Origin: Escherichia coli
GTDB lineage: Bacteria > Pseudomonadota > Gammaproteobacteria > Enterobacterales > Enterobacteriaceae
Reading direction: 5' to 3' (one strand)
DNA: 64,000 bases
Assembly (NCBI RefSeq): GCF_030013595.1
Contig: NZ_CP122771.1
Shown: positions 16,285 to 62,029 of the stretch, in pieces
Position numbering within the stretch: position 1 is the first letter of the stretch
How the letters are laid out: each line of letters opens with the position of its first letter
The notes under the pieces: generated by a model
What the model saw: only the letters and a program-made list of their open reading frames with translations
The model's database searches: none
What the model was told of the DNA's origin: nothing
Position numbers and translations under genes: made by a program

Positions 16285-16332
16285 ATCTTAATTTGTATAT
16301 TATGACGTTTTATTCAATATGAAGGAACATTG

Positions 16333-17064
16333 ATGAAAATGAAAAAATTGATGATGGTTGCACTGGTCAGTTCCACTCTGGCCCTTTCAGGGTGTGGTGC
16401 GATGAGCACAGCAATCAAGAAGCGTAACCTTGAGGTGAAGACTCAGATGAGTGAGACCATCTGGCTTGAACCCGCCAGCGAACGCACGGTATTTCTGCAG
16501 ATCAAAAACACGTCTGATAAAGACATGAGTGGGCTGCAGGGCAAAATTGCTGATGCTGTGAAAGCAAAAGGATATCAGGTGGTGACTTCTCCGGATAAAG
16601 CCTACTACTGGATTCAGGCGAATGTGCTGAAGGCCGATAAGATGGATCTGCGGGAATCTCAGGGATGGCTGAACCGTGGTTATGAAGGCGCAGCAGTTGG
16701 TGCAGCGTTAGGTGCCGGTATCACCGGATATAATTCCAGTTCTGCCGGTGCCACACTCGGTGTGGGCCTTGCTGCCGGTCTGGTGGGTATGGCTGCAGAT
16801 GCGATGGTGGAAGATGTGAACTATACCATGATCACGGATGTGCAGATTGCAGAGCGTACTAAGGCAACGGTGACAACGGATAATGTTGCCGCCCTGCGTC
16901 AGGGCACATCAGGTGCGAAAATTCAGACCAGTACTGAAACAGGTAACCAGCATAAATACCAGACCCGTGTGGTCTCAAATGCGAACAAGGTTAACCTGAA
17001 ATTTGAAGAGGCGAAGCCTGTTCTCGAAGACCAGCTGGCCAAATCAATCGCAAATATTCTCTGA
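16333..17064 (+). CDS. traT: TraT, surface-exclusion and serum-resistance lipoprotein
   Basis: Lipobox LALSGC; near-identity to recalled F TraT (…[49 protein letters not shown]…). Confidence 0.9.
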
Positions 17065-17097: not shown

Positions 17098-17266
17098 TGC
17101 TGACGCCTCGCGTTGCTCGTTGTCCAACCCCGGGACGTAACAAAATAAATTTTGTCACTTCCCGGCGTTTCCGAAATAAATATGAAAACACTGAGCGGTT
17201 GTGCAAATTCTTTGTGCGACCGTGAAGTGTTGCCGGCGAAGCCGGGATCTTCCGGAGAAAGTCATT

Positions 17267-18004
17267 ATGACATCAGACAATATCGCTGAATATGTTGGTG
17301 AGAATAATCAATTTACTGAGAAGCCTGTAACTGAATACCCCCCGGTGATACAGGATAATACAGTGACCACTAAAGACTATCTGTACAGCAATAATATTGA
17401 TACTGACCTTTTAGTGGTTATCGGAGGGCTTATTGTTATATTGTTTCTCATGATGCTTATCATGTACTTTATTAATTCTCTCAGGCATAAGGAATTAACT
17501 GAAATACTGACAAAAATATCTTTTCCTGAAAAATCCGGGAGCAATTCGCTTAAACCGGAAGCGGTCAGCTGTAATTTGTTGTCCCTGTGTGTGCTGGCAC
17601 CGGTATTCTTTACACCCAGAAAGCTGGCTGAAGTTTCCAGGGAGATCATCGTGGCGAGTGCGCAGGAAATTGCATGGACGCCGGGGAGCAGTCGTATTGA
17701 TGGCCACCAGGCGGAGAATATCACCTGGGCGATTTCATCGCAGTCTCCTGCCGATAAGTATGATCTCATCAATAAAACCTCCCGTGTTTCTCCTGACAGT
17801 GGCCGTTTTTATGAACCGGACACAGTTCTGGATCACCGTGAACGGGTACGCCTTTTTATTCAGATCCAGTTTCCGCATGGGAGTGACTGGTCTGAAGTAT
17901 TGCGCCTGACTGACATTGTTACAGAGAAGGTCTCTTCCGGCAGGGCTGCAGGCGGGTATCACCACCGACATACAGGGTACACCTGGTCTGTTTCTGTGAA
18001 TTAA
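17267..18004 (+). CDS. Hypothetical membrane protein between traT and traD
   Basis: RBS ggaga then ATG 17267; one predicted TM segment [22 protein letters not shown]; 246 aa. Confidence 0.5.
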
Positions 18005-18054: not shown

Positions 18055-20280
18055 ATGAGTTTTAACGCAAAGGATATGACCCAGGGCGGTCAGATTGCGT
18101 CCATGCGTATCCGCATGTTCAGCCAGATCGCCAATATCATGCTTTACTGCCTGTTTATTTTTTTCTGGATACTCGTTGGTCTGATTTTATGGGTAAAAAT
18201 AAGCTGGCAGACGTTTGTGAACGGCTGTATTTACTGGTGGTGTACCACGCTGGAAGGCATGCGGGATTTAATCAAGTCCCAGCCAGTATATGAGATCCAG
18301 TATTACGGCAAAACCTTCCGGATGAACGCGGCTCAGGTACTGCATGATAAATACATGATCTGGTGCGGTGAGCAGCTATGGTCCGCATTCGTTCTGGCGT
18401 CTGTCGTGGCCCTGGTTATTTGCCTGATTACCTTCTTTGTTGTTTCCTGGATTCTGGGGCGTCAGGGTAAACAACAGAGCGAAAATGAAGTCACAGGTGG
18501 TCGTCAGCTGACAGACAATCCGAAAGATGTTGCCCGGATGCTGAAAAAAGACGGCAAGGACTCCGATATCCGGATTGGCGACCTGCCGATTATCCGAGAT
18601 TCCGAAATCCAGAACTTCTGTCTGCACGGCACAGTCGGGGCCGGTAAGTCGGAGGTTATCCGTCGTCTGGCCAACTACGCCCGTAAGCGTGGTGATATGG
18701 TGGTGATTTATGACCGTTCAGGGGAATTTGTTAAAAGTTACTATGATCCCTCCATCGATAAAATCCTGAATCCGCTGGATGCCCGCTGTGCCGCATGGGA
18801 TTTGTGGAAGGAGTGCCTGACACAGCCGGATTTTGATAATACCGCGAACACGCTGATCCCTATGGGTACAAAAGAGGACCCGTTCTGGCAGGGGTCAGGA
18901 CGTACCATTTTTGCGGAAGCGGCGTACCTGATGCGTAATGACCCCAACCGCAGCTACAGCAAACTGGTGGACACACTGCTTTCCATCAAAATCGAAAAAC
19001 TGCGTACCTTCCTGCGTAATTCACCGGCAGCCAACCTGGTGGAAGAGAAAATTGAGAAAACGGCGATTTCCATCCGTGCTGTGCTGACCAACTACGTGAA
19101 AGCCATCCGTTACCTGCAGGGGATTGAGCATAACGGTGAGTCTTTTACCATCCGTGACTGGATGCGTGGTGTCCGGGAAGATCAGAAAAACGGCTGGCTG
19201 TTTATCTCGTCGAATGCCGACACCCATGCCTCCCTGAAGCCGGTGATCTCCATGTGGCTGTCCATTGCCATTCGTGGTCTGCTGGCAATGGGAGAAAACC
19301 GTAATCGTCGTGTGTGGTTTTTCTGTGACGAGTTACCCACGTTACACAAACTGCCGGACCTGGTGGAGATCCTGCCGGAAGCCCGTAAGTTCGGTGGCTG
19401 TTATGTGTTTGGTATCCAGTCCTATGCCCAGCTGGAAGATATCTACGGTGAGAAAGCGGCGGCCACGCTGTTTGACGTCATGAACACCCGTGCCTTTTTC
19501 CGTTCTCCCAGCCATAAGATTGCAGAGTTCGCTGCCGGTGAAATTGGTGAGAAAGAGCACCTGAAAGCCAGCGAGCAGTATTCCTACGGTGCTGACCCGG
19601 TACGTGACGGGGTATCGACCGGTAAGGATATGGAGCGTCAGACGCTGGTCAGTTATTCCGACATTCAGTCTCTGCCGGATCTGACCTGTTATGTCACTCT
19701 GCCCGGACCGTATCCGGCAGTCAAACTCTCTCTGAAATATCAGGCACGTCCGAAGGTTGCCCCGGAGTTTATTCCGCGTGACATCAACCCGGAAATGGAG
19801 AACCGTCTGAGTGCCGTACTTGCCGCAAGGGAAGCAGAAGGTCGCCAGATGGCCAGCCTCTTCGAACCGGAGGTTGCCTCCGGAGAAGGCGTGACTCAGG
19901 CTGAACAGCCACAACAGCCACAACAGCCACAACAGCCACAACAGCCACAACAGCCACAACAGCCACAACAGCCACAACAGCCACAACAGCCACAACAGCC
20001 AGTGTCTTCTGTCATCAATGATAAGAAGTCAGATGCAGGTGTGAGTGTTCCGGCAGGGGGGATCGAGCAGGAGCTGAAAATGAAACCGGAAGAAGAGATG
20101 GAACAGCAACTGCCACCCGGGATCAGTGAATCCGGTGAAGTGGTGGATATGGCCGCTTATGAGGCATGGCAACAGGAAAATCATCCGGACATCCAGCAGC
20201 ATATGCAGCGTCGTGAAGAGGTGAACATTAATGTACACCGGGAGCGCGGGGAGGATGTTGAGCCGGGAGATGATTTCTGA
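18055..20280 (+). CDS. traD: TraD, type IV coupling protein
   Basis: 741 aa, N-terminal TM segments, Walker [10 protein letters not shown]-terminal QQP repeat tract and acidic tail as in F/R100 TraD. Confidence 0.95.
19906..19995 (+). repeat. Tandem 9-bp repeat (cagccacaa) x10 encoding the (QQP)n tract of TraD
   Basis: Ten perfect 9-bp units read directly in the sequence. Confidence 0.9.
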
Positions 20281-23200
20281 TGTTGAGTTTCAGCGTTGTT
20301 AAATCGGCAGGCAGTGCCGGAAACTATTACACCGACAAGGATAATTACTATGTGCTGGGCAGCATGGGAGAACGCTGGGCTGGTCAGGGGGCTGAACAGC
20401 TTGGGCTGCAGGGCAGCGTCGATAAGGATGTTTTTACCCGTCTTCTGGAGGGCAGGCTGCCGGACGGAGCGGATTTAAGCCGCATGCAGGATGGCAGTAA
20501 TAAGCATCGTCCCGGCTACGACCTGACCTTCTCCGCCCCCAAAAGTGTCTCCATGATGGCCATGCTCGGGGGGGATAAACGTCTTATTGATGCACATAAC
20601 CAGGCCGTGGATTTTGCTGTCCGTCAGGTGGAGGCGCTGGCTTCCACACGGGTGATGACGGACGGACAGTCAGAAACGGTGCTGACCGGTAATCTGGTGA
20701 TGGCACTGTTTAACCATGACACCAGTCGCGATCAGGACCCACAGTTACACACGCATGTGGTGGTGGCTAATGTCACGCAGCATAATGGCGAGTGGAAGAC
20801 ACTGAGCAGTGACAAAGTGGGGAAAACCGGATTTTCCGAGAACGTGCTCGCGAACCGGATTGCGTTCGGGAAAATATATCAGAGTGAGTTACGTCAGCGC
20901 GTTGAGGCGCTGGGTTATGAAACCGAAGTGGTCGGTAAGCACGGTATGTGGGAGATGCCGGGCGTACCGGTGGAGGCCTTTTCCAGTCGTTCACAGGCTA
21001 TCAGGGAGGCCGTCGGTGAAGACGCCTCGCTGAAATCCCGGGATGTGGCGGCGCTGGATACGCGTAAATCCAAACAGCACGTCGATCCGGAAATCAGAAT
21101 GGCTGAATGGATGCAGACGCTGAAGGAAACCGGGTTCGACATCCGGGCATATCGTGACGCGGCGGATCAGCGTGCGGAGATCCGCACGCTGACGCCCGGG
21201 CCTGCTTCACAGGACGGGCCGGATGTGCAGCAGGCGGTGACACAGGCGATTGCCGGATTAAGTGAACGAAAAGTGCAGTTCACGTACACGGACGTGCTGG
21301 CCAGAACGGTCGGCATACTGCCGCCGGAAAATGGTGTGATTGAACGGGCACGCGCCGGTATCGATGAGGCCATCAGCCGTGAGCAGCTTATCCCCCTCGA
21401 CCGTGAGAAGGGGCTGTTCACGTCCGGGATTCATGTGCTCGATGAGCTGTCAGTCCGGGCACTCAGTCGTGACATCATGAAACAGAACCGGGTGACCGTA
21501 CATCCGGAGAAAAGTGTTCCCCGGACGGCCGGTTACAGCGATGCCGTCAGCGTGCTGGCACAGGATCGCCCGTCGCTGGCCATTGTGTCCGGGCAGGGCG
21601 GTGCAGCCGGGCAGCGTGAGCGGGTGGCTGAACTGGTCATGATGGCCCGGGAGCAGGGGCGGGAGGTGCAGATTATCGCTGCTGACCGTCGCTCGCAGAT
21701 GAACATGAAGCAGGATGAGCGTCTGTCCGGTGAGCTGATAACCGGGCGGCGTCAGCTGCTGGAGGGCATGACCTTCACGCCGGGCAGTACCGTTATCGTC
21801 GACCAGGGCGAAAAACTCTCCCTGAAAGAGACGTTAACTCTGCTGGACGGTGCCGCACGGCATAACGTACAGGTCCTGATAATCGACAGCGGGCAGCGGA
21901 CCGGTACCGGCAGTGCGCTGATGGCCATGAAGGATGCCGGAGTGAACACATATCGCTGGCAGGGGGGAGAACAGCGACCGGCAACCATCATCAGTGAACC
22001 GGACCGTAATGTCCGCTATGCCCGGCTGGCCGGAGATTTTGCGGTCAGCGTGAAAGCCGGAGAAGAGAGCGTGGCGCAGGTCAGTGGAGTACGGGAACAG
22101 GCCATGCTGACTCAGACCATTCGCAGTGAGCTGAAAACACAGGGCGTACTCGGACATCCGGAGGTGACCATGACCGCGCTGTCACCGGTCTGGCTGGACA
22201 GCCGGAGTCGTTATCTGCGGGATATGTACCGCCCGGGGATGGTGATGGAGCAGTGGAACCCGGAGACACGCAGTCATGACCGCTATGTGATAGACCGGGT
22301 GACGGCGCAGAGTCACAGCCTGACCCTGCGGGATGCGCAGGGCGAAACGCAGGTGGTGCGTATTTCCTCCCTGGACAGCAGCTGGTCGCTGTTCCGGCCG
22401 GAAAAAATGCCGGTGGCAGACGGCGAGCGACTGAGGGTGACCGGGAAAATTCCCGGACTCCGAGTCTCCGGCGGTGACCGCCTGCAGGTGGCATCCGTCA
22501 GTGAAGATGTGATGACGGTTGTTGTGCCGGGGCGGGCTGAACCGGCCTCCCTGCCTGTGAGCGATTCACCGTTCACGGCACTGAAGCTGGAGAATGGCTG
22601 GGTGGAAACGCCCGGGCATTCCGTCAGCGACAGTGCGAAGGTTTTTGCCTCCGTCACACAGATGGCAATGGACAAGGCCACCCTGAACGGTCTGGCCCGC
22701 AGTGGTCGTGATGTCCGGCTGTATTCCTCACTGGATGAAACCCGTACTGCGGAAAAACTTGCCCGCCATCCGTCCTTTACGGTGGTTTCTGAGCAGATAA
22801 AGGCGCGGGCCGGTGAGACATCGCTGGAAACGGCTATCAGTCATCAGAAGTCCGCACTTAACACACCGGCACAGCAGGCCATTCATCTTGCCCTTCCGGT
22901 GGTGGAAAGTAAAAACCTGGCCTTCAGCCATGTGGACCTGCTGACAGAGGCAAAGTCGTTTGCTGCAGAAGGAACCAGTTTTGCTGACCTGGGGCGGGAA
23001 ATCAATGCGCAGATAAAACGCGGTGACTTACTGTATGTGGATGTGGCAAAAGGCTATGGCACAGGCCTGCTGGTTTCCCGTGCGTCGTATGAGGCAGAAA
23101 AGAGCATTCTTCGCCATATTCTCGAAGGTAAGGAGGCGGTCACGCCGCTGATGGAGAGAGTACCTGGCGAACTCATGGAGAAACTGACATCAGGACAGCG

Positions 23201-25550
23201 TGCCGCCACCCGCATGATACTGGAAACGTCCGACCGTTTCACGGTGGTGCAGGGCTATGCCGGTGTGGGTAAGACCACACAGTTCCGGGCGGTGATGTCA
23301 GCCGTGAACATGCTGCCGGAGAGTGAGCGTCCCCGTGTCGTTGGGCTGGGCCCCACGCACCGTGCGGTCGGGGAGATGCGCAGCGCCGGCGTGGATGCAC
23401 AGACACTGGCGTCCTTTCTGCATGACACGCAGCTGCAGCAGCGCAGCGGAGAAACGCCGGATTTCAGCAACACGCTGTTTCTGCTCGATGAGAGCTCAAT
23501 GGTGGGCAATACCGACATGGCACGGGCATACGCCCTGATTGCGGCCGGTGGTGGTCGTGCCGTGGCCAGCGGTGACACGGACCAGCTGCAGGCCATCGCG
23601 CCCGGTCAGCCTTTCCGTCTCCAGCAGACGCGCAGTGCTGCCGATGTGGTCATCATGAAGGAGATTGTGCGCCAGACGCCGGAGCTGCGGGAGGCGGTAT
23701 ACAGCCTGATTAACCGGGATGTGGAAAGGGCACTGTCCGGGCTTGAGAGTGTGAAACCGTCTCAGGTGCCACGTCAGGAGGGCGCATGGGTACCGGAGCA
23801 CTCCGTGACGGAGTTCAGTCACAGCCAGGAAGCGAAACTGGCAGAAGCGCAGCAGAAGGCGATGCTGAAAGGTGAGGCTTTTCCGGATATTCCCATGACA
23901 CTGTATGAAGCCATTGTCCGCGATTATACCGGCAGGACGCCGGAAGCACGGGAGCAGACGCTGATTGTCACGCATCTGAATGAGGACCGGCGCGTACTGA
24001 ACAGCATGATTCATGATGCACGGGAAAAGGCCGGTGAGCTGGGAAAAGAGCAGGTCATGGTGCCTGTCCTGAACACAGCGAATATACGCGACGGGGAGTT
24101 GCGTCGTCTCTCCACCTGGGAGACACATCGGGACGCACTTGCCCTGGTGGATAATGTGTATCACCGGATTGCCGGTATCAGCAAGGATGACGGGCTGATA
24201 ACTCTGCAGGATGCGGAAGGTAACACGCGGCTGATTTCGCCCCGGGAGGCGGTGGCTGAAGGCGTCACACTGTACACTCCGGACACCATCCGGGTGGGAA
24301 CCGGTGACCGGATGCGCTTCACGAAGAGTGACCGGGAGCGCGGTTATGTGGCCAACAGCGTCTGGACGGTGACAGCGGTTTCCGGTGACAGTGTCACGCT
24401 GTCGGACGGACAGCAGACCCGGGTGATTCGCCCCGCCCAGGAGCAGGCAGAGCAACATATTGACCTGGCCTATGCCATCACCGCCCACGGTGCGCAGGGG
24501 GCGAGTGAAACCTTTGCCATTGCGCTTGAAGGCACGGAAGGTAACCGGAAACTGATGGCCGGCTTTGAGTCAGCCTACGTGGCCCTGTCGCGTATGAAGC
24601 AGCATGTGCAGGTGTACACCGATAATCGTCAGGGCTGGACGGATGCCATTAACAATGCCGTACAGAAAGGAACTGCCCACGATGTGCTGGAGCCGAAACC
24701 GGACCGGGAGGTCATGAATGCAGAGCGGCTGTTCAGTACGGCGCGGGAGCTGCGGGACGTGGCGGCAGGGCGTGCCGTTCTTCGTCAGGCGGGGCTTGCC
24801 GGGGGAGACAGTCCTGCACGGTTTATTGCACCGGGACGTAAATATCCACAGCCGTATGTGGCACTGCCGGCGTTTGACCGTAACGGCAAATCAGCCGGTA
24901 TCTGGCTGAACCCGCTGACCTCGGATGACGGAAACGGGCTGCGGGGATTCAGCGGTGAAGGCCGTGTGAAAGGCAGCGGGGATGCGCAGTTCGTGGCCCT
25001 GCAGGGCAGCCGTAACGGAGAAAGCCTGCTGGCTGATAATATGCAGGAGGGTGTCCGGATTGCCCGTGATAATCCTGACAGCGGTGTGGTGGTAAGAATC
25101 GCCGGTGAAGGCCGTCCGTGGAATCCCGGTGCCATCACCGGTGGCCGCGTGTGGGGGGATATCCCGGACAACAGCGTCCAGCCGGGAGCCGGAAATGGCG
25201 AGCCGGTCACGGCAGAGGTACTGGCACAGCGGCAGGCTGAAGAGGCCATCCGCCGTGAAACGGAACGCCGTGCGGATGAAATTGTCCGTAAAATGGCAGA
25301 GAACAAACCTGACCTGCCGGATGGCAAAACAGAGCAGGCTGTCAGGGAGATTGCCGGGCAGGAGCGTGACCGGGCTGCCATAACTGAACGGGAAGCCGCG
25401 CTGCCGGAGAGTGTGCTGCGTGAATCACAACGGGAGCGGGAAGCGGTCCGGGAGGTTGCCCGGGAAAATCTGCTGCAGGAGCGTCTGCAGCAGATGGAGC
25501 GGGATATGGTTCGTGACCTGCAGAAAGAGAAAACCCTGGGCGGAGACTGA
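20280..25550 (+). CDS. traI: TraI, relaxase/helicase
   Basis: 1756 aa, N-terminus [24 protein letters not shown]; ATGA overlap with the traD stop; size identical to F TraI. Confidence 0.95.
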   Translation: MLSFSVVKSAGSAGNYYTDKDNYYVLGSMGERWAGQGAEQLGLQGSVDKDVFTRLLEGRLPDGADLSRMQDGSNKHRPGYDLTFSAPKSVSMMAMLGGDKRLIDAHNQAVDFAVRQVEALASTRVMTDGQSETVLTGNLVMALFNHDTSRDQDPQLHTHVVVANVTQHNGEWKTLSSDKVGKTGFSENVLANRIAFGKIYQSELRQRVEALGYETEVVGKHGMWEMPGVPVEAFSSRSQAIREAVGEDASLKSRDVAALDTRKSKQHVDPEIRMAEWMQTLKETGFDIRAYRDAADQRAEIRTLTPGPASQDGPDVQQAVTQAIAGLSERKVQFTYTDVLARTVGILPPENGVIERARAGIDEAISREQLIPLDREKGLFTSGIHVLDELSVRALSRDIMKQNRVTVHPEKSVPRTAGYSDAVSVLAQDRPSLAIVSGQGGAAGQRERVAELVMMAREQGREVQIIAADRRSQMNMKQDERLSGELITGRRQLLEGMTFTPGSTVIVDQGEKLSLKETLTLLDGAARHNVQVLIIDSGQRTGTGSALMAMKDAGVNTYRWQGGEQRPATIISEPDRNVRYARLAGDFAVSVKAGEESVAQVSGVREQAMLTQTIRSELKTQGVLGHPEVTMTALSPVWLDSRSRYLRDMYRPGMVMEQWNPETRSHDRYVIDRVTAQSHSLTLRDAQGETQVVRISSLDSSWSLFRPEKMPVADGERLRVTGKIPGLRVSGGDRLQVASVSEDVMTVVVPGRAEPASLPVSDSPFTALKLENGWVETPGHSVSDSAKVFASVTQMAMDKATLNGLARSGRDVRLYSSLDETRTAEKLARHPSFTVVSEQIKARAGETSLETAISHQKSALNTPAQQAIHLALPVVESKNLAFSHVDLLTEAKSFAAEGTSFADLGREINAQIKRGDLLYVDVAKGYGTGLLVSRASYEAEKSILRHILEGKEAVTPLMERVPGELMEKLTSGQRAATRMILETSDRFTVVQGYAGVGKTTQFRAVMSAVNMLPESERPRVVGLGPTHRAVGEMRSAGVDAQTLASFLHDTQLQQRSGETPDFSNTLFLLDESSMVGNTDMARAYALIAAGGGRAVASGDTDQLQAIAPGQPFRLQQTRSAADVVIMKEIVRQTPELREAVYSLINRDVERALSGLESVKPSQVPRQEGAWVPEHSVTEFSHSQEAKLAEAQQKAMLKGEAFPDIPMTLYEAIVRDYTGRTPEAREQTLIVTHLNEDRRVLNSMIHDAREKAGELGKEQVMVPVLNTANIRDGELRRLSTWETHRDALALVDNVYHRIAGISKDDGLITLQDAEGNTRLISPREAVAEGVTLYTPDTIRVGTGDRMRFTKSDRERGYVANSVWTVTAVSGDSVTLSDGQQTRVIRPAQEQAEQHIDLAYAITAHGAQGASETFAIALEGTEGNRKLMAGFESAYVALSRMKQHVQVYTDNRQGWTDAINNAVQKGTAHDVLEPKPDREVMNAERLFSTARELRDVAAGRAVLRQAGLAGGDSPARFIAPGRKYPQPYVALPAFDRNGKSAGIWLNPLTSDDGNGLRGFSGEGRVKGSGDAQFVALQGSRNGESLLADNMQEGVRIARDNPDSGVVVRIAGEGRPWNPGAITGGRVWGDIPDNSVQPGAGNGEPVTAEVLAQRQAEEAIRRETERRADEIVRKMAENKPDLPDGKTEQAVREIAGQERDRAAITEREAALPESVLRESQREREAVREVARENLLQERLQQMERDMVRDLQKEKTLGGD

Positions 25551-45721: not shown

Positions 45722-45775
45722 ATGATGTTGTTGTTCCTGCTACTGCTACTGCTACTGCTACTGCTACTGCTACTG
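45722..45775 (+). repeat. Microsatellite (GTT)n followed by (CTGCTA)6 upstream of repeat B copy 2
   Basis: Six perfect tandem CTGCTA units read directly; the equivalent position in copy 1 (42432-42450) carries (GTT)5. Confidence 0.85.
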
Positions 45776-53063: not shown

Positions 53064-53374
53064 CTTAAATGTCCCTTTACTGCGAAAATGGACATTAGTA
53101 TCGGAAACAGGAAAGGGAGGCGAAAGACGGTTTAAATGAGACGGTTACCGTGATGCGGCAACAATCACATGGATTTCCCGTGAACGGTCTGAATGAGCGG
53201 ATTATTTTCAGGGAAAGTGAGTGTGGTCAGCGTGCAGGTATATGGGCTATGATGTGCCCGGCGCTTGAGGCTTTCTGCCTCATGACGTGAAGGTGGTTTG
53301 TTGCCGTGTTGTGTGGCAGAAAGAAGATAGCCCCGTAGTAAGTTAATTTTCATTAACCACCACGAGGCATCCCT

Positions 53375-53587
53375 ATGTCTAGTCCACATCAGGATAGCCT
53401 CTTACCGCGCTTTGCGCAAGGAGAAGAAGGCCATGAAACTACCACGAAGTTCCCTTGTCTGGTGTGTGTTGATCGTGTGTCTCACACTGTTGATATTCAC
53501 TTATCTGACACGAAAATCGCTGTGCGAGATTCGTTACAGAGACGGACACAGGGAGGTGGCGGCTTTCATGGCTTACGAATCCGGTAA
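53375..53587 (+). CDS. mok: Mok (FlmC) leader ORF overlapping hok
   Basis: 70-codon ORF overlapping hok in a different frame, as in hok/sok loci. Confidence 0.5.
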
Positions 53588-53902: not shown

Positions 53903-56246
53903 GGGTCGGGTAGCAGCGGCACATTGCTGCGCCGCCGCCCCCTAAGAACGGAGCGTGCGAGTTTTCCCGCACTCCGCTCAAGCCTTTATAAGTGCTTTCG
54001 GTGAGCACCGGCTTCCCTGCTGTGTAACTGTCGGTGGCAGTTCGGATGTAACAACTCGAGATTGGTCAGTTCGTCACTGCCGCCCATAACTTTCCTGATC
54101 CGGTGATGTATATTCCATCCGGTCTGGTTGGTTATGAGTTGTCCGCACTGCGGACAGTGTTTCCCCTGCCTCTTCCAGAGTTGAACTACTGTCTTCATCT
54201 TCTTTGATTTGCCTTTCCAGATTAGATCCAGACGACGTTCAAAGTAGATTTCCATTCCGGGGGTGTATGGTGTTGCTTCGCCTTTGATTTTTATATGGCG
54301 CTTTATCGGTGTTTCCATTGCCCGGAAGAGTGTCAGAATTTTCCCTTCCGGGGTTATGGCTTTAAAGATCCAGCGCCTGCCTTCAAAGGAGAAGTATCGT
54401 CCGGCGATCCACCGCAATCCTTTCCGGGGATGCCGTCTTACACACCATCGCCATATAGCTCGCCAGATTTGGGTGTCGACATAATTAAATGTTTCTTTCG
54501 CCACGACGTGTCGGTGATAGGTAGCCCATCCCCGGATCACCGGGTTTAGCTGGCCTATCAGTTTCCATGCCGGGAGCGTCGGATTGCGTTTAATTATTTC
54601 TCTGACTTTACAGAGGAAGTTCTTCAGGTTTTTCTTCGACGGTTTAATCAGCATTTTACCGTTGTACTTCCTGACGTTCTGCCCTAAAAAGTCGAAGCCT
54701 TTATCTATATGTGTGATCGCTGTTTTTTCTTCCGACAGTTCCAGCCCTCGTTCGCGCATGAAAGCTGCAATCAGTGGTCTGACCTCATTTTCCAGCAATT
54801 CACGGGAGCTGCCTGAACAGATGAAATCATCAGCATATCTCACATAATTCACCTGGTGCTTTGCACTGTGATAACCACTTTTCCTGAACGTTTGCATCAG
54901 TTCCTTCTCCAGTCCGTCCAGAGCCATGTTGGCGAGAACAGGGGATATGATGCCTCCCTGCGGTGTCCCGCTGTTCGTATGGTTAAACACGCCTCTTTCC
55001 ATGTAACCTGCTTTCAACCATTTTTTAAGCAGTCTCCTGTCCATCGGAATATGGGAAAGCAGCCAGTCATGGCTGATGTTATCGAAACACCCTTTAATAT
55101 CGCCCTCCAGTATCCATTTGGGCGATACTTTCTGGCTCATCCGCAGAAAAATGGACTCAATGGCGTCATGCGTGCTGCGCATTGGTCTGAAACCATAGCT
55201 GTTATGGTCAGCAGTGGTCTCGGATACGGGTTCCAGAGCCAGCAGCCACAGTGCCTGCATGGCCCGGTCCCTCATTGTGGGTATGCCCAGCGGTCGCGTT
55301 TTGCCGTTTGATTTTGGGATATGTATTCGCCGTAGTGGCTGTGGCCTGTAACCACACAGATTCAGGCTGCATATTCCTTCCCATTTCTCCTTCGGTGTGT
55401 GCCATATTTTTCCGTCAATACCGGGTGTCCTTTTACCGGTATTTTCAGTTACACGCCTGACAGCCACGGCTTTGCCGGAGAATGAGCGGGTGAGGATGCG
55501 CTGTAGTTCTCTGACCTGCCGCCATTGTTGCTGTCGGGTTGCCTTTGCAATCCGTAACTGTAGCTTTCGCACCCGGGCATGGCATGCTTTCCAGTTTATG
55601 GTGTGCCAGCCTGTCGGGTGGGGTATCGTGGACACACTGATGTGTGTATTCATCTCGCTGATATCCTTTTGACTGCTTTACAGCTTTTCATGCAATTAAA
55701 GACCAGACGGAAGTCTGCCCGCTTTCGCGTCGGGGAACCTGCCCCGTATCCCGGTTATTACGGCCGGGCATTCGCTTTTTCCGTCCTCCTATGCCCGCAC
55801 CGCTAACAGTGTTCCTTGCGGTTCACCTGCCTGTGAGGCAGCGATACGGGTTTACCAGGTTCCGCTTAACATACAGAGGGTCAGGGCGGGTTCTGTCTCT
55901 TCACCGGGGGTCTCTGCGCCCATGTGCTCCCTGTGCGCGAGGTAGCAACCGGACCCCGTACCTTTTGGTTCAGGCCTGTCAGCATCTTTGGCCTGTTGCC
56001 GATAACGGTGTTTATCAACAGTTCACATGTGTTAACCCTTCTGACCAGCCTTGCTCTCCTGCCGCATGATGCTTGCAGCAAGGTAAAGCCCCTCACGGGG
56101 CTTTACCCGGGCTGACGCCCGGCTCTCGTTGTCCCGGGAGCTTCAGACCCCGCCGTTGCCGGCAACGCCTGTCCCGGTAGGCTACAGCTAATGGGATAGC
56201 TGGTTTTATCAATGTAAAACAATACGTTAAGCGACTTCCTGTCGCA
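53903..56246 (-). mobile_element. Group II intron (about 2.34 kb) inserted in a type B leading-region repeat; low-coordinate boundary uncertain by about 10 bp
   Basis: Minus-strand 5' end GTGCGAC at 56246; domain V GAGCGGAGTGCGGGAAAACTCGCACGCTCCGTTC at 53946-53979; flanks rejoin to match uninterrupted copy 1 at 42459-42510. Confidence 0.8.
53986..55653 (-). CDS. Group II intron-encoded protein (reverse transcriptase / maturase / HNH endonuclease)
   Basis: 555 aa with RT motifs (YADD), maturase X region and C-terminal HNH-like Cys/His cluster. Confidence 0.9.
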   Translation of the reverse strand: MNTHISVSTIPHPTGWHTINWKACHARVRKLQLRIAKATRQQQWRQVRELQRILTRSFSGKAVAVRRVTENTGKRTPGIDGKIWHTPKEKWEGICSLNLCGYRPQPLRRIHIPKSNGKTRPLGIPTMRDRAMQALWLLALEPVSETTADHNSYGFRPMRSTHDAIESIFLRMSQKVSPKWILEGDIKGCFDNISHDWLLSHIPMDRRLLKKWLKAGYMERGVFNHTNSGTPQGGIISPVLANMALDGLEKELMQTFRKSGYHSAKHQVNYVRYADDFICSGSSRELLENEVRPLIAAFMRERGLELSEEKTAITHIDKGFDFLGQNVRKYNGKMLIKPSKKNLKNFLCKVREIIKRNPTLPAWKLIGQLNPVIRGWATYHRHVVAKETFNYVDTQIWRAIWRWCVRRHPRKGLRWIAGRYFSFEGRRWIFKAITPEGKILTLFRAMETPIKRHIKIKGEATPYTPGMEIYFERRLDLIWKGKSKKMKTVVQLWKRQGKHCPQCGQLITNQTGWNIHHRIRKVMGGSDELTNLELLHPNCHRQLHSREAGAHRKHL

Positions 56247-59200: not shown

Positions 59201-59303
59201 GATGATCCTAGAGGCGCTGCTAGGAGTGTCTTTCTTACTTGTAAACACTATATGCATATTTATAGTGAAAAGTTCATTGCTTAATTATGAAAGGTTTTAT
59301 CTT

Positions 59304-59687
59304 ATGGCCAGAGTAATTTTGTATATCAGTAATGATGTCTATGACAAAGTAAATGCGATAGTTGAACAGCGTCGTCAGGAGGGGGCAAGAGATAAAGATA
59401 TAAGTGTTTCGGGAACAGCTTCAATGCTTCTTGAACTGGGGCTTCGCGTACATCAGGCTCAGATGGAGCGTAAAGAGTCTGCATTTAATCAGACTGAGTT
59501 TAATAAATTACTTCTTGAATGTGTTGTAAAAACACAGTCATCAGTAGCGAAAATTTTGGGTATTGAGTCTCTAAGTCCCCATGTCTCCGGGAATCCAAAG
59601 TTTGAATATGCCAATATGGTTGAAGATATTCGTGAGAAGGTGTCATCTGAGATGGAACGATTTTTTCCAAAAAATGATGAGGAATAA
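59304..59687 (+). CDS. traM: TraM, oriT-binding relaxosome protein
   Basis: 127 aa MARVILYISNDVYDKVNAIVEQRRQEGARDKDISVSGTASMLLELGLRV... Confidence 0.9.
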   Translation: MARVILYISNDVYDKVNAIVEQRRQEGARDKDISVSGTASMLLELGLRVHQAQMERKESAFNQTEFNKLLLECVVKTQSSVAKILGIESLSPHVSGNPKFEYANMVEDIREKVSSEMERFFPKNDEE

Positions 59688-60972: not shown

Positions 60973-62029
60973 GGCTTTGTTGAATAAATCGAACTTTTGC
61001 TGAGTTGAAGGATCAGATCACGCATCCTCCCGACAACACAGACCATTCCGTGGCAAAGCAAAAGTTCAGAATCACCAACTGGTCCACCTACAACAAAGCT
61101 CTCATCAACCGTGGCTCCCTCACTTTCTGGCTGGATGATGAAGCGATTCAGGCCTGGTATGAGTCGGCAACGCCTTCATCACGAGGAAGGCCCCAGCGCT
61201 ATTCTGATCTCGCCATCACCACCGTTCTGGTGATTAAACGCGTATTCCGGCTGACCCTGCGGGCTGCGCAGGGCTTTATTGATTCCATTTTTTCTCTGAT
61301 GAACGTTCCGCTACGCTGCCCGGATTACAGCTGTGTCAGCAGGCGGGCAAAGTCGGTTAATGTCAGTTTCAAAACGCCCACCCGGGGTGAAATCGCACAC
61401 CTGGTAATTGATTCCACCGGGCTGAAGGTCTTCGGTGAAGGCGAGTGGAAAGTCAAAAAGCATGGCCAGGAACGCCGCCGTATCTGGCGTAAGCTGCATC
61501 TCGCCGTTGACAGTAAAACACATGAAATCATCTGCGCTGACCTGTCGCTGAACAACGTTACGGACTCAGAGGCCTTCCCCGGGTTAATCCGGCAAACCCA
61601 CCGGAAAATCAGGTCAGCCGCCGCCGATGGCGCTTACGATACCCGGCTATGTCACGATGAACTGCGGCGTAAGAAAATCAGCGCGCTTATCCCTCCCCGA
61701 AAAGGTGCGGGTTACTGGCCCGGTGAATATGCAGACCGTAACCGTGCAGTGGCTAATCAGCGAATGACCGGGAGTAATGCGCGGTGGAAATGGACAACAG
61801 ATTACAACCGTCGCTCGATAGCGGAAACGGCGATGTACCGGGTAAAACAGCTGTTCGGGGGTTCACTGACGCTGCGTGACTACGATGGTCAGGTTGCGGA
61901 GGCTATGGCCCTGGTACGAGCGCTGAACAAAATGACGAAAGCAGGTATGCCTGAAAGCGTGCGTATTGCCTGAAAACACAACCCGCTACGGGGGAGACTT
62001 ACCCAAAATCTGATTTATTCAACAAAGCC
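60973..62029 (+). mobile_element. IS903 (IS5 family, 1057 bp) with 9-bp target duplication GTGTTCAGG
   Basis: Terminal inverted repeats GGCTTTGTTGAATAAATCG at both ends; GTGTTCAGG at 60964-60972 and 62030-62038. Confidence 0.9.
61005..61973 (+). CDS. IS903 transposase
   Basis: 322-aa ORF filling the element; DDE-type IS5-family transposase. Confidence 0.9.
   Translation: MKDQITHPPDNTDHSVAKQKFRITNWSTYNKALINRGSLTFWLDDEAIQAWYESATPSSRGRPQRYSDLAITTVLVIKRVFRLTLRAAQGFIDSIFSLMNVPLRCPDYSCVSRRAKSVNVSFKTPTRGEIAHLVIDSTGLKVFGEGEWKVKKHGQERRRIWRKLHLAVDSKTHEIICADLSLNNVTDSEAFPGLIRQTHRKIRSAAADGAYDTRLCHDELRRKKISALIPPRKGAGYWPGEYADRNRAVANQRMTGSNARWKWTTDYNRRSIAETAMYRVKQLFGGSLTLRDYDGQVAEAMALVRALNKMTKAGMPESVRIA

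Follow-up and report, generated by a model that had tools for sequence, protein, structure and literature searches.

A variable QQP repeat in an F-like traD gene is most probably a slippage-prone minisatellite encoding a tolerated spacer

Why does a plasmid coupling protein carry ten identical tripeptides in a row, and does that number set the allele apart from those of its relatives? The question is raised by a 64,000-nucleotide stretch of Escherichia coli DNA (contig NZ_CP122771.1 of assembly GCF_030013595.1), referred to here as the window, in which an initial annotation made from the sequence alone described an expanded Gln-Gln-Pro (QQP) tract in the C-terminal region of TraD. The explanation that we favor, and consider quite probable as a whole, is that the tract is a known QQP motif encoded by a minisatellite whose length varies by slippage and that it is tolerated as a flexible spacer in the protein.

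The gene that contains the repeat was identified from its ORF, Pfam matches, TrwB structures, and the annotation of relatives:

18055 to 20280, + strand: traD, gene for an F-type type IV coupling protein of 741 aa, plus stop codon

Pfam places TraD_N (PF12615) at aa 32 to 128 (E = 2.6e-35) and TrwB_AAD_bind (PF10412) at aa 172 to 561 (E = 5e-117), so that the product has both regions that define the family, a TraD_N membrane region and a TrwB-type NTP-binding/all-alpha domain. The TrwB structures 1e9r/1gl6, which are the only solved relatives, align to aa 161 to 573 (E = 3e-47). This gene is annotated as traD in plasmids that are 99 to 100% identical. It also occupies the position expected in an F-like tra operon, between a TraT-like ORF (16330 to 17064) and the traI ORF (20280 to 25550), and the annotation of relatives gives the same traT-traD-traI order. 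On domain content and gene order, we identify the product of 18055 to 20280 as the F-type TraD coupling protein of the VirD4/TrwB superfamily. A 267-aa ORF lies between traT and traD (17201 to 18004, + strand) and has no Pfam match; at the equivalent position, relatives are annotated with a 738-nt hypothetical protein gene (WP_069199865.1).

The repeat was delimited at the DNA level with Tandem Repeats Finder and a direct scan and at the protein level by reading codons in the traD frame:

19904 to 20001, + strand: perfect 9-bp tandem array, AACAGCCAC x 10.9, a slippage-prone DNA element
19906 to 20001, + strand: QP(QQP)10 coding sequence, TraD aa 618 to 649

Tandem Repeats Finder reported a single array between 17 and 22 kb of the window, with a period of 9, 10.9 copies, 100% matches, 0 indels, and a score of 196. 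In the direct scan of the 64-kb window, these 98 nt were the longest perfect period-9 run, and the array is far beyond what chance would produce because perfect runs at the other periods scanned (3 to 39, multiples of 9 excluded) never exceeded 48 nt. The codons CAG CCA at 19906 to 19911 are followed by ten CAA CAG CCA units at 19912 to 20001. The ten perfect 9-bp repeats initially placed at 19906 to 19995 are confirmed as ten units in the register CAGCCACAA, and the array extends a further 2 nt at its 5' end and 6 nt at its 3' end. Because the unit is a multiple of three, every change in unit number keeps the reading frame and alters only the length of the tract. A second perfect microsatellite, (CTGCTA)x6.5, occupies 39 nt at 45737 to 45775 in the leading region, where the only ORFs are implausible ones on the - strand.

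Lang et al. (2011, Mol Microbiol 82:1071; PMC3245843) described a variable "QQP motif" in F-like TraD that is 5 residues long in F and 23 residues long in R1, and their Fig. 8 places it upstream of the TraM interaction domain. Direct sequence comparison found AE-QPQQP-VS at the homologous position in the F plasmid of strain EMG2. F thus has QPQQP only, as Lang et al. state, and the initial claim that the window tract is longer than that of F is correct. The window tract and the published motif share the protein, the repeat unit, length heterogeneity among related plasmids, and a site between the NTPase and TraM interaction domains; the sole difference is the length of the window allele, 32 residues (QP plus 10 QQP) versus 5 in F and 23 in R1. 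We identify the window array as this published motif. In the searchable literature, Lang et al. (2011) alone treat the tract, and no functional study of it was found. New here are the range of about 1 to 22 units and the change in copy number on backgrounds without flank substitutions. Early papers on R100 traD reportedly also noted the repeat.

More than 5,000 PLSDB plasmids match a traD query. Among the best 40 of these matches (at least 99.1% identity), gene lengths differ from 2,226 nt solely by multiples of 9. The corresponding unit numbers take 13 distinct values (5, 6, 7, 9, 10, 11, 13, 14, 15, 19, 20, 21, and 22), and the 10 units of the window are shared by 6 of the 40. The possibility that repeat number is invariant in close relatives was checked, and the number instead ranges from 5 to 22 units among these best 40. 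A second sample was drawn with a 331-nt query across the array at even steps down the ranking, which left 59 usable rows for PLSDB and the same number for complete E. coli genomes. The span equaled 331 modulo 9 in 112 of the 118 sampled rows, corresponding to about 1 to 22 units. F-type flanks contain an additional PDV triplet (9 nt), so that the unit counts for them are one lower than their spans suggest. About one in five of the 118 rows belongs to a minimal, F-like class, and there is a broad spread around 5 to 13 units. Ten units is an ordinary, mid-range allele, with F at the lower end. The word "expanded" is accurate relative to F, but because F is the low extreme, it does not mark the 10-unit allele as unusual. 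In annotated intact traD genes, tract length ranges from 5 to at least 68 residues, and these natural alleles suggest that tract length is at most weakly constrained.

The tempo of change was assessed on the closest backgrounds. The backbones closest to the window are those of two pig ETEC plasmids from Belgium, CP122741.1 and NZ_CP122686.1. The first is 99.4% identical over 25 kb and has 9 units. The second has 22 units versus 10 in the window, yet there are 0 mismatches in 5,079 nt of flanks (4,800 upstream and 279 downstream), and its identity to the window runs for 4,947 nt up to and into the array and resumes for the 279 nt of traD that follow it. Korean chicken isolates supplied three further plasmids, CP148448, CP148509, and CP148468, which have 11, 9, and 8 units, respectively, and about 7,979 nt of flanks free of mismatches. 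All units of the compared window-lineage arrays are the identical 9-mer CAACAGCCA, with the exception of one interrupting CAACAGCTA unit in CP178636. In the F-type lineage, p1OXA77 carries nine equally pure units, CAGCCGCAA, built on CCG instead of CCA. Pure units that differ in spelling between the two lineages fit turnover within arrays better than ancient conservation. Array purity, lineage-specific spelling, and change on substitution-free backgrounds all speak for whole units being gained and lost frequently. The initial suggestion of recent slippage is supported by plasmids with identical flanks that differ by 1 to 12 units.

At the DNA level, the array would be a perfectly homogeneous 9-bp coding minisatellite that gains and loses whole units. 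Strand slippage during replication is the simplest mechanism and the most likely one; a contribution from unequal recombination among arrays is possible and, with sequence data alone, inseparable from slippage. In-frame coding tandem repeats, including VNTR and contingency-type loci, are a known class in bacterial genes. The traD array resembles these loci in its perfect short tandem units and in copy-number polymorphism between otherwise identical sequences. It differs from them in that its 9-nt unit permits no frameshift switching, that it lies in a plasmid ATPase of the cytoplasmic face rather than in a surface antigen, and that no phenotype is tied to its length in the literature searched. 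On/off switches have a unit that is not a multiple of three or lie in a promoter, while the traD unit is 9 nt long and in frame, and all compared alleles with 1 to 22 units keep the TraD frame and tail. The traD array is a case of length variation, not phase variation.

The position of the tract in the protein was defined relative to the C-terminal extension (delimited by domain ends, composition, and PMC3245843), the TraM-binding tail (alignment with F TraD; role from Beranek 2004 and Lu 2008, PMC7555446), and the partner protein TraM (translation; colinear with traM of CP122741.1):

19774 to 20277, + strand: TraD C-terminal extension, aa 574 to 741, which contains the QQP tract
20164 to 20277, + strand: last 38 aa of TraD, the TraM-binding tail
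59304 to 59687, + strand: traM, relaxosome partner, 127 aa from an internal Met of ORF 59202 to 59687

The QQP tract begins 45 aa past the end of the TrwB-like ATPase domain and ends 92 aa short of the C terminus. TrwB of plasmid R388, the structural prototype of type IV coupling proteins, has an NTPase and all-alpha domain homologous to TraD aa 161 to 573. The alignment stops at residue 432 to 433 of TrwB chains that are 436 to 437 residues long, and because it reaches the chain end, nothing in TrwB corresponds to the 168-aa extension of TraD, its QQP tract, or its TraM-binding tail. No Pfam domain above threshold was found in the extension. An Amelogenin match at aa 615 to 656 scored 20.6 bits, below the cutoff of 27, and was rejected as a reflection of Q/P composition. 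By composition, both the extension and the tract fall on the side of the charge-hydropathy boundary that is typical of disorder; on the TOP-IDP scale, no segment is more disorder-prone than the tract. The C-terminal extension of F-like TraD has been described as unstructured (PMC3245843), and composition and literature together indicate that the extension and the QQP tract are probably disordered.

The initial annotation had also linked the TraD C terminus to TraM binding and to the specificity and efficiency of transfer. This agrees with work that later papers cite (Sastre 1998, Beranek 2004, and Lu 2008). In PMC7555446, the last two are given as the sources for the last 38 aa of TraD being necessary and sufficient for TraM binding and for the last 8 aa occupying a pocket of the TraM tetramer. 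The repeat itself is not part of the TraM contact, because it lies 92 aa upstream of the C terminus and outside the sufficient last 38 aa. F-type TraD proteins are described as having an extension of 150 to 200 aa that ends in an acidic, TraM-binding tail with a Gly and a terminal aromatic residue (PMC7555446 and PMC3245843); the window TraD has a 168-aa extension and an acidic end, ...EDVEPGDDF, that is identical to that of F TraD in the alignment. The last 60 aa contain one difference from F TraD, H at position 709 versus Q in F, which falls within the last 38 aa. When the window TraD, F TraD, and two other alleles were aligned, the residues flanking the tract and the last 60 aa were almost invariant, and the tract differed.

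At the protein level, the array would encode a low-complexity, proline-punctuated, and probably disordered spacer in the C-terminal extension, with the hexameric TrwB-like ATPase domain on one side and, on the other, the acidic tail through which TraD docks on the TraM tetramer of the relaxosome. The tract most likely serves as a flexible linker with which each TraD protomer can bring its acidic tail to oriT-bound TraM tetramers. Tolerance of length changes ahead of the TraM-binding tail fits a flexible-tether model of relaxosome docking. The array also separates IncF backbones that are identical over kilobases (8, 9, and 11 units in one set; 10 and 22 units in another) and is a possible marker for fine-scale plasmid epidemiology. 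Conversely, it gives traD-based typing spurious "different alleles" and leads to assembly errors.

The same variation might be read as adaptive, with copy number either setting how far the TraD tail reaches, or how avidly it binds, toward the TraM-relaxosome or altering the uptake of pilus-specific RNA phages, in the manner of a contingency-like tuning locus whose many lengths are maintained by diversifying selection. We regard this as unlikely, although it fares best among the alternatives. The very wide spread of lengths on near-identical backgrounds speaks for it, and Lang et al. (2011; PMC3245843) proposed that phage resistance diversifies F-like TraD and put forward the differing QQP lengths of F and R1 as a candidate, which they described as "under investigation." In the avidity model of Wong et al. 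(2011), flexibility of the TraD tail matters. However, wide and roughly continuous lengths made of perfectly pure units are what neutral slippage predicts, on/off switching is ruled out by the unit length of 9, and no phenotype tied to QQP copy number was found in the literature searched. Lang et al. (2011) had asked whether QQP length lies behind plasmid-specific TraD behavior, and no answer was found in the searchable literature. A specific form of the idea, in which copy number is a fast-mutating rheostat of the TraD tether, is slightly more doubtful. If it were true, tract length would set how efficiently the ATPase ring captures TraM-bound relaxosomes, foreign mobilizable plasmids, or the R17 RNA-protein A complex, and many lengths would be kept by selection that fluctuates between transfer efficiency and RNA-phage pressure.

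The state of the tra operon in the window plasmid also weighs against a tuned allele. A 1,056-bp insertion sequence of the IS5 family (60974 to 62029; transposase ORF at 61005 to 61973, + strand) lies at about codon 7 to 9 of traA, the pilin gene. It has 18-bp inverted ends, GGCTTTGTTGAATAAATC, and a 9- to 10-bp target duplication, GTGTTCAGGG, and is absent from CP122741.1. From its 18-bp ends, we take it to be IS903-like. The element probably disrupts pilin synthesis, with a polar effect on the tra operon. Because the operon is probably interrupted upstream of traD in this way, the functional relevance of the window TraD allele is doubtful, and the allele may lack a working system in which to be expressed.

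Artifacts of sequencing or assembly are a very improbable source of the copy number or of its differences among records. The window array is 98 nt long, shorter than ordinary short reads, which makes the window count credible; arrays near 200 nt exceed short-read length, those of 150 to 200 nt can collapse with short reads, and the counts in public records vary in reliability with the quality of the assembly. The 112 conforming spans of the 118 sampled differ by exact multiples of 9, while the other six do not fit 331 modulo 9, five by a non-multiple of 3 and one by a multiple of 3 but not of 9. Several of these off-span records lack a traD annotation, suggesting errors in some assemblies. The rows concerned are H77, H83, H84, H87, H104, and H202; H77 is annotated with a hypothetical protein only, and H83, H87, and H104 have no feature. 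Off-span records may represent frameshifted TraD tails or sequencing errors. An allele from Klebsiella variicola with a +1/-1 indel pair inside the array can likewise be cited in favor of artifact, whereas in every compared allele of the window lineage the array is perfect or nearly so. Sanger-era sequences already differed in length (F, 5 residues; R1, 23 residues), and groups of records share one value, such as 2,226 nt in the CP0577xx pig-fecal records and 2,199 nt in three Shigella records. We conclude that the copy-number polymorphism is real, despite some public records that look erroneous.

The K. variicola record, NZ_CP114364.1, contains a degenerate traD array at 411 to 660 that reads QP(QQP)8, diverged units, seven +1-frame (TAT)n units, and (QQP)3. 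The seven wrong-frame units are flanked by a 1-nt insertion and a 1-nt deletion, and the CDS is annotated as intact, with 788 aa. This array is either a real double frameshift or a long-read error.

The chance that an opposite-strand gene accounts for the repeat is negligible: a 217-aa (WLL)n ORF does exist there (19342 to 19995, - strand), but it is a mechanical by-product of the repeat, lying wholly inside the strongly supported traD, with a repeat part that is the reverse complement of the QQP codons, in a region where related records list only traD and traI features.

The window as a whole is colinear with CP122741.1, a 66-kb IncF plasmid, save for a few insertions and deletions. A group II intron on the - strand at 53905 to 56203 lies in a segment absent from CP122741.1. 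Rfam matches group-II-D1D4-7 at 56054 to 56203 and Intron_gpII (domains V/VI) at 53905 to 53981, and the intron ORF (53986 to 55653) has RT, maturase, and HNH domains. Adjoining the intron, at 53259 to 53435 on the + strand, is the sok antisense RNA of a hok/sok-type toxin-antitoxin locus (Rfam, 88.9 bits). Compared with NZ_CP122686.1, the window is 100% identical from 15055 to the end of traD and then about 98.4% identical in traI (51 mismatches in 3.4 kb), a pattern that suggests a recombination breakpoint near the traD/traI junction.
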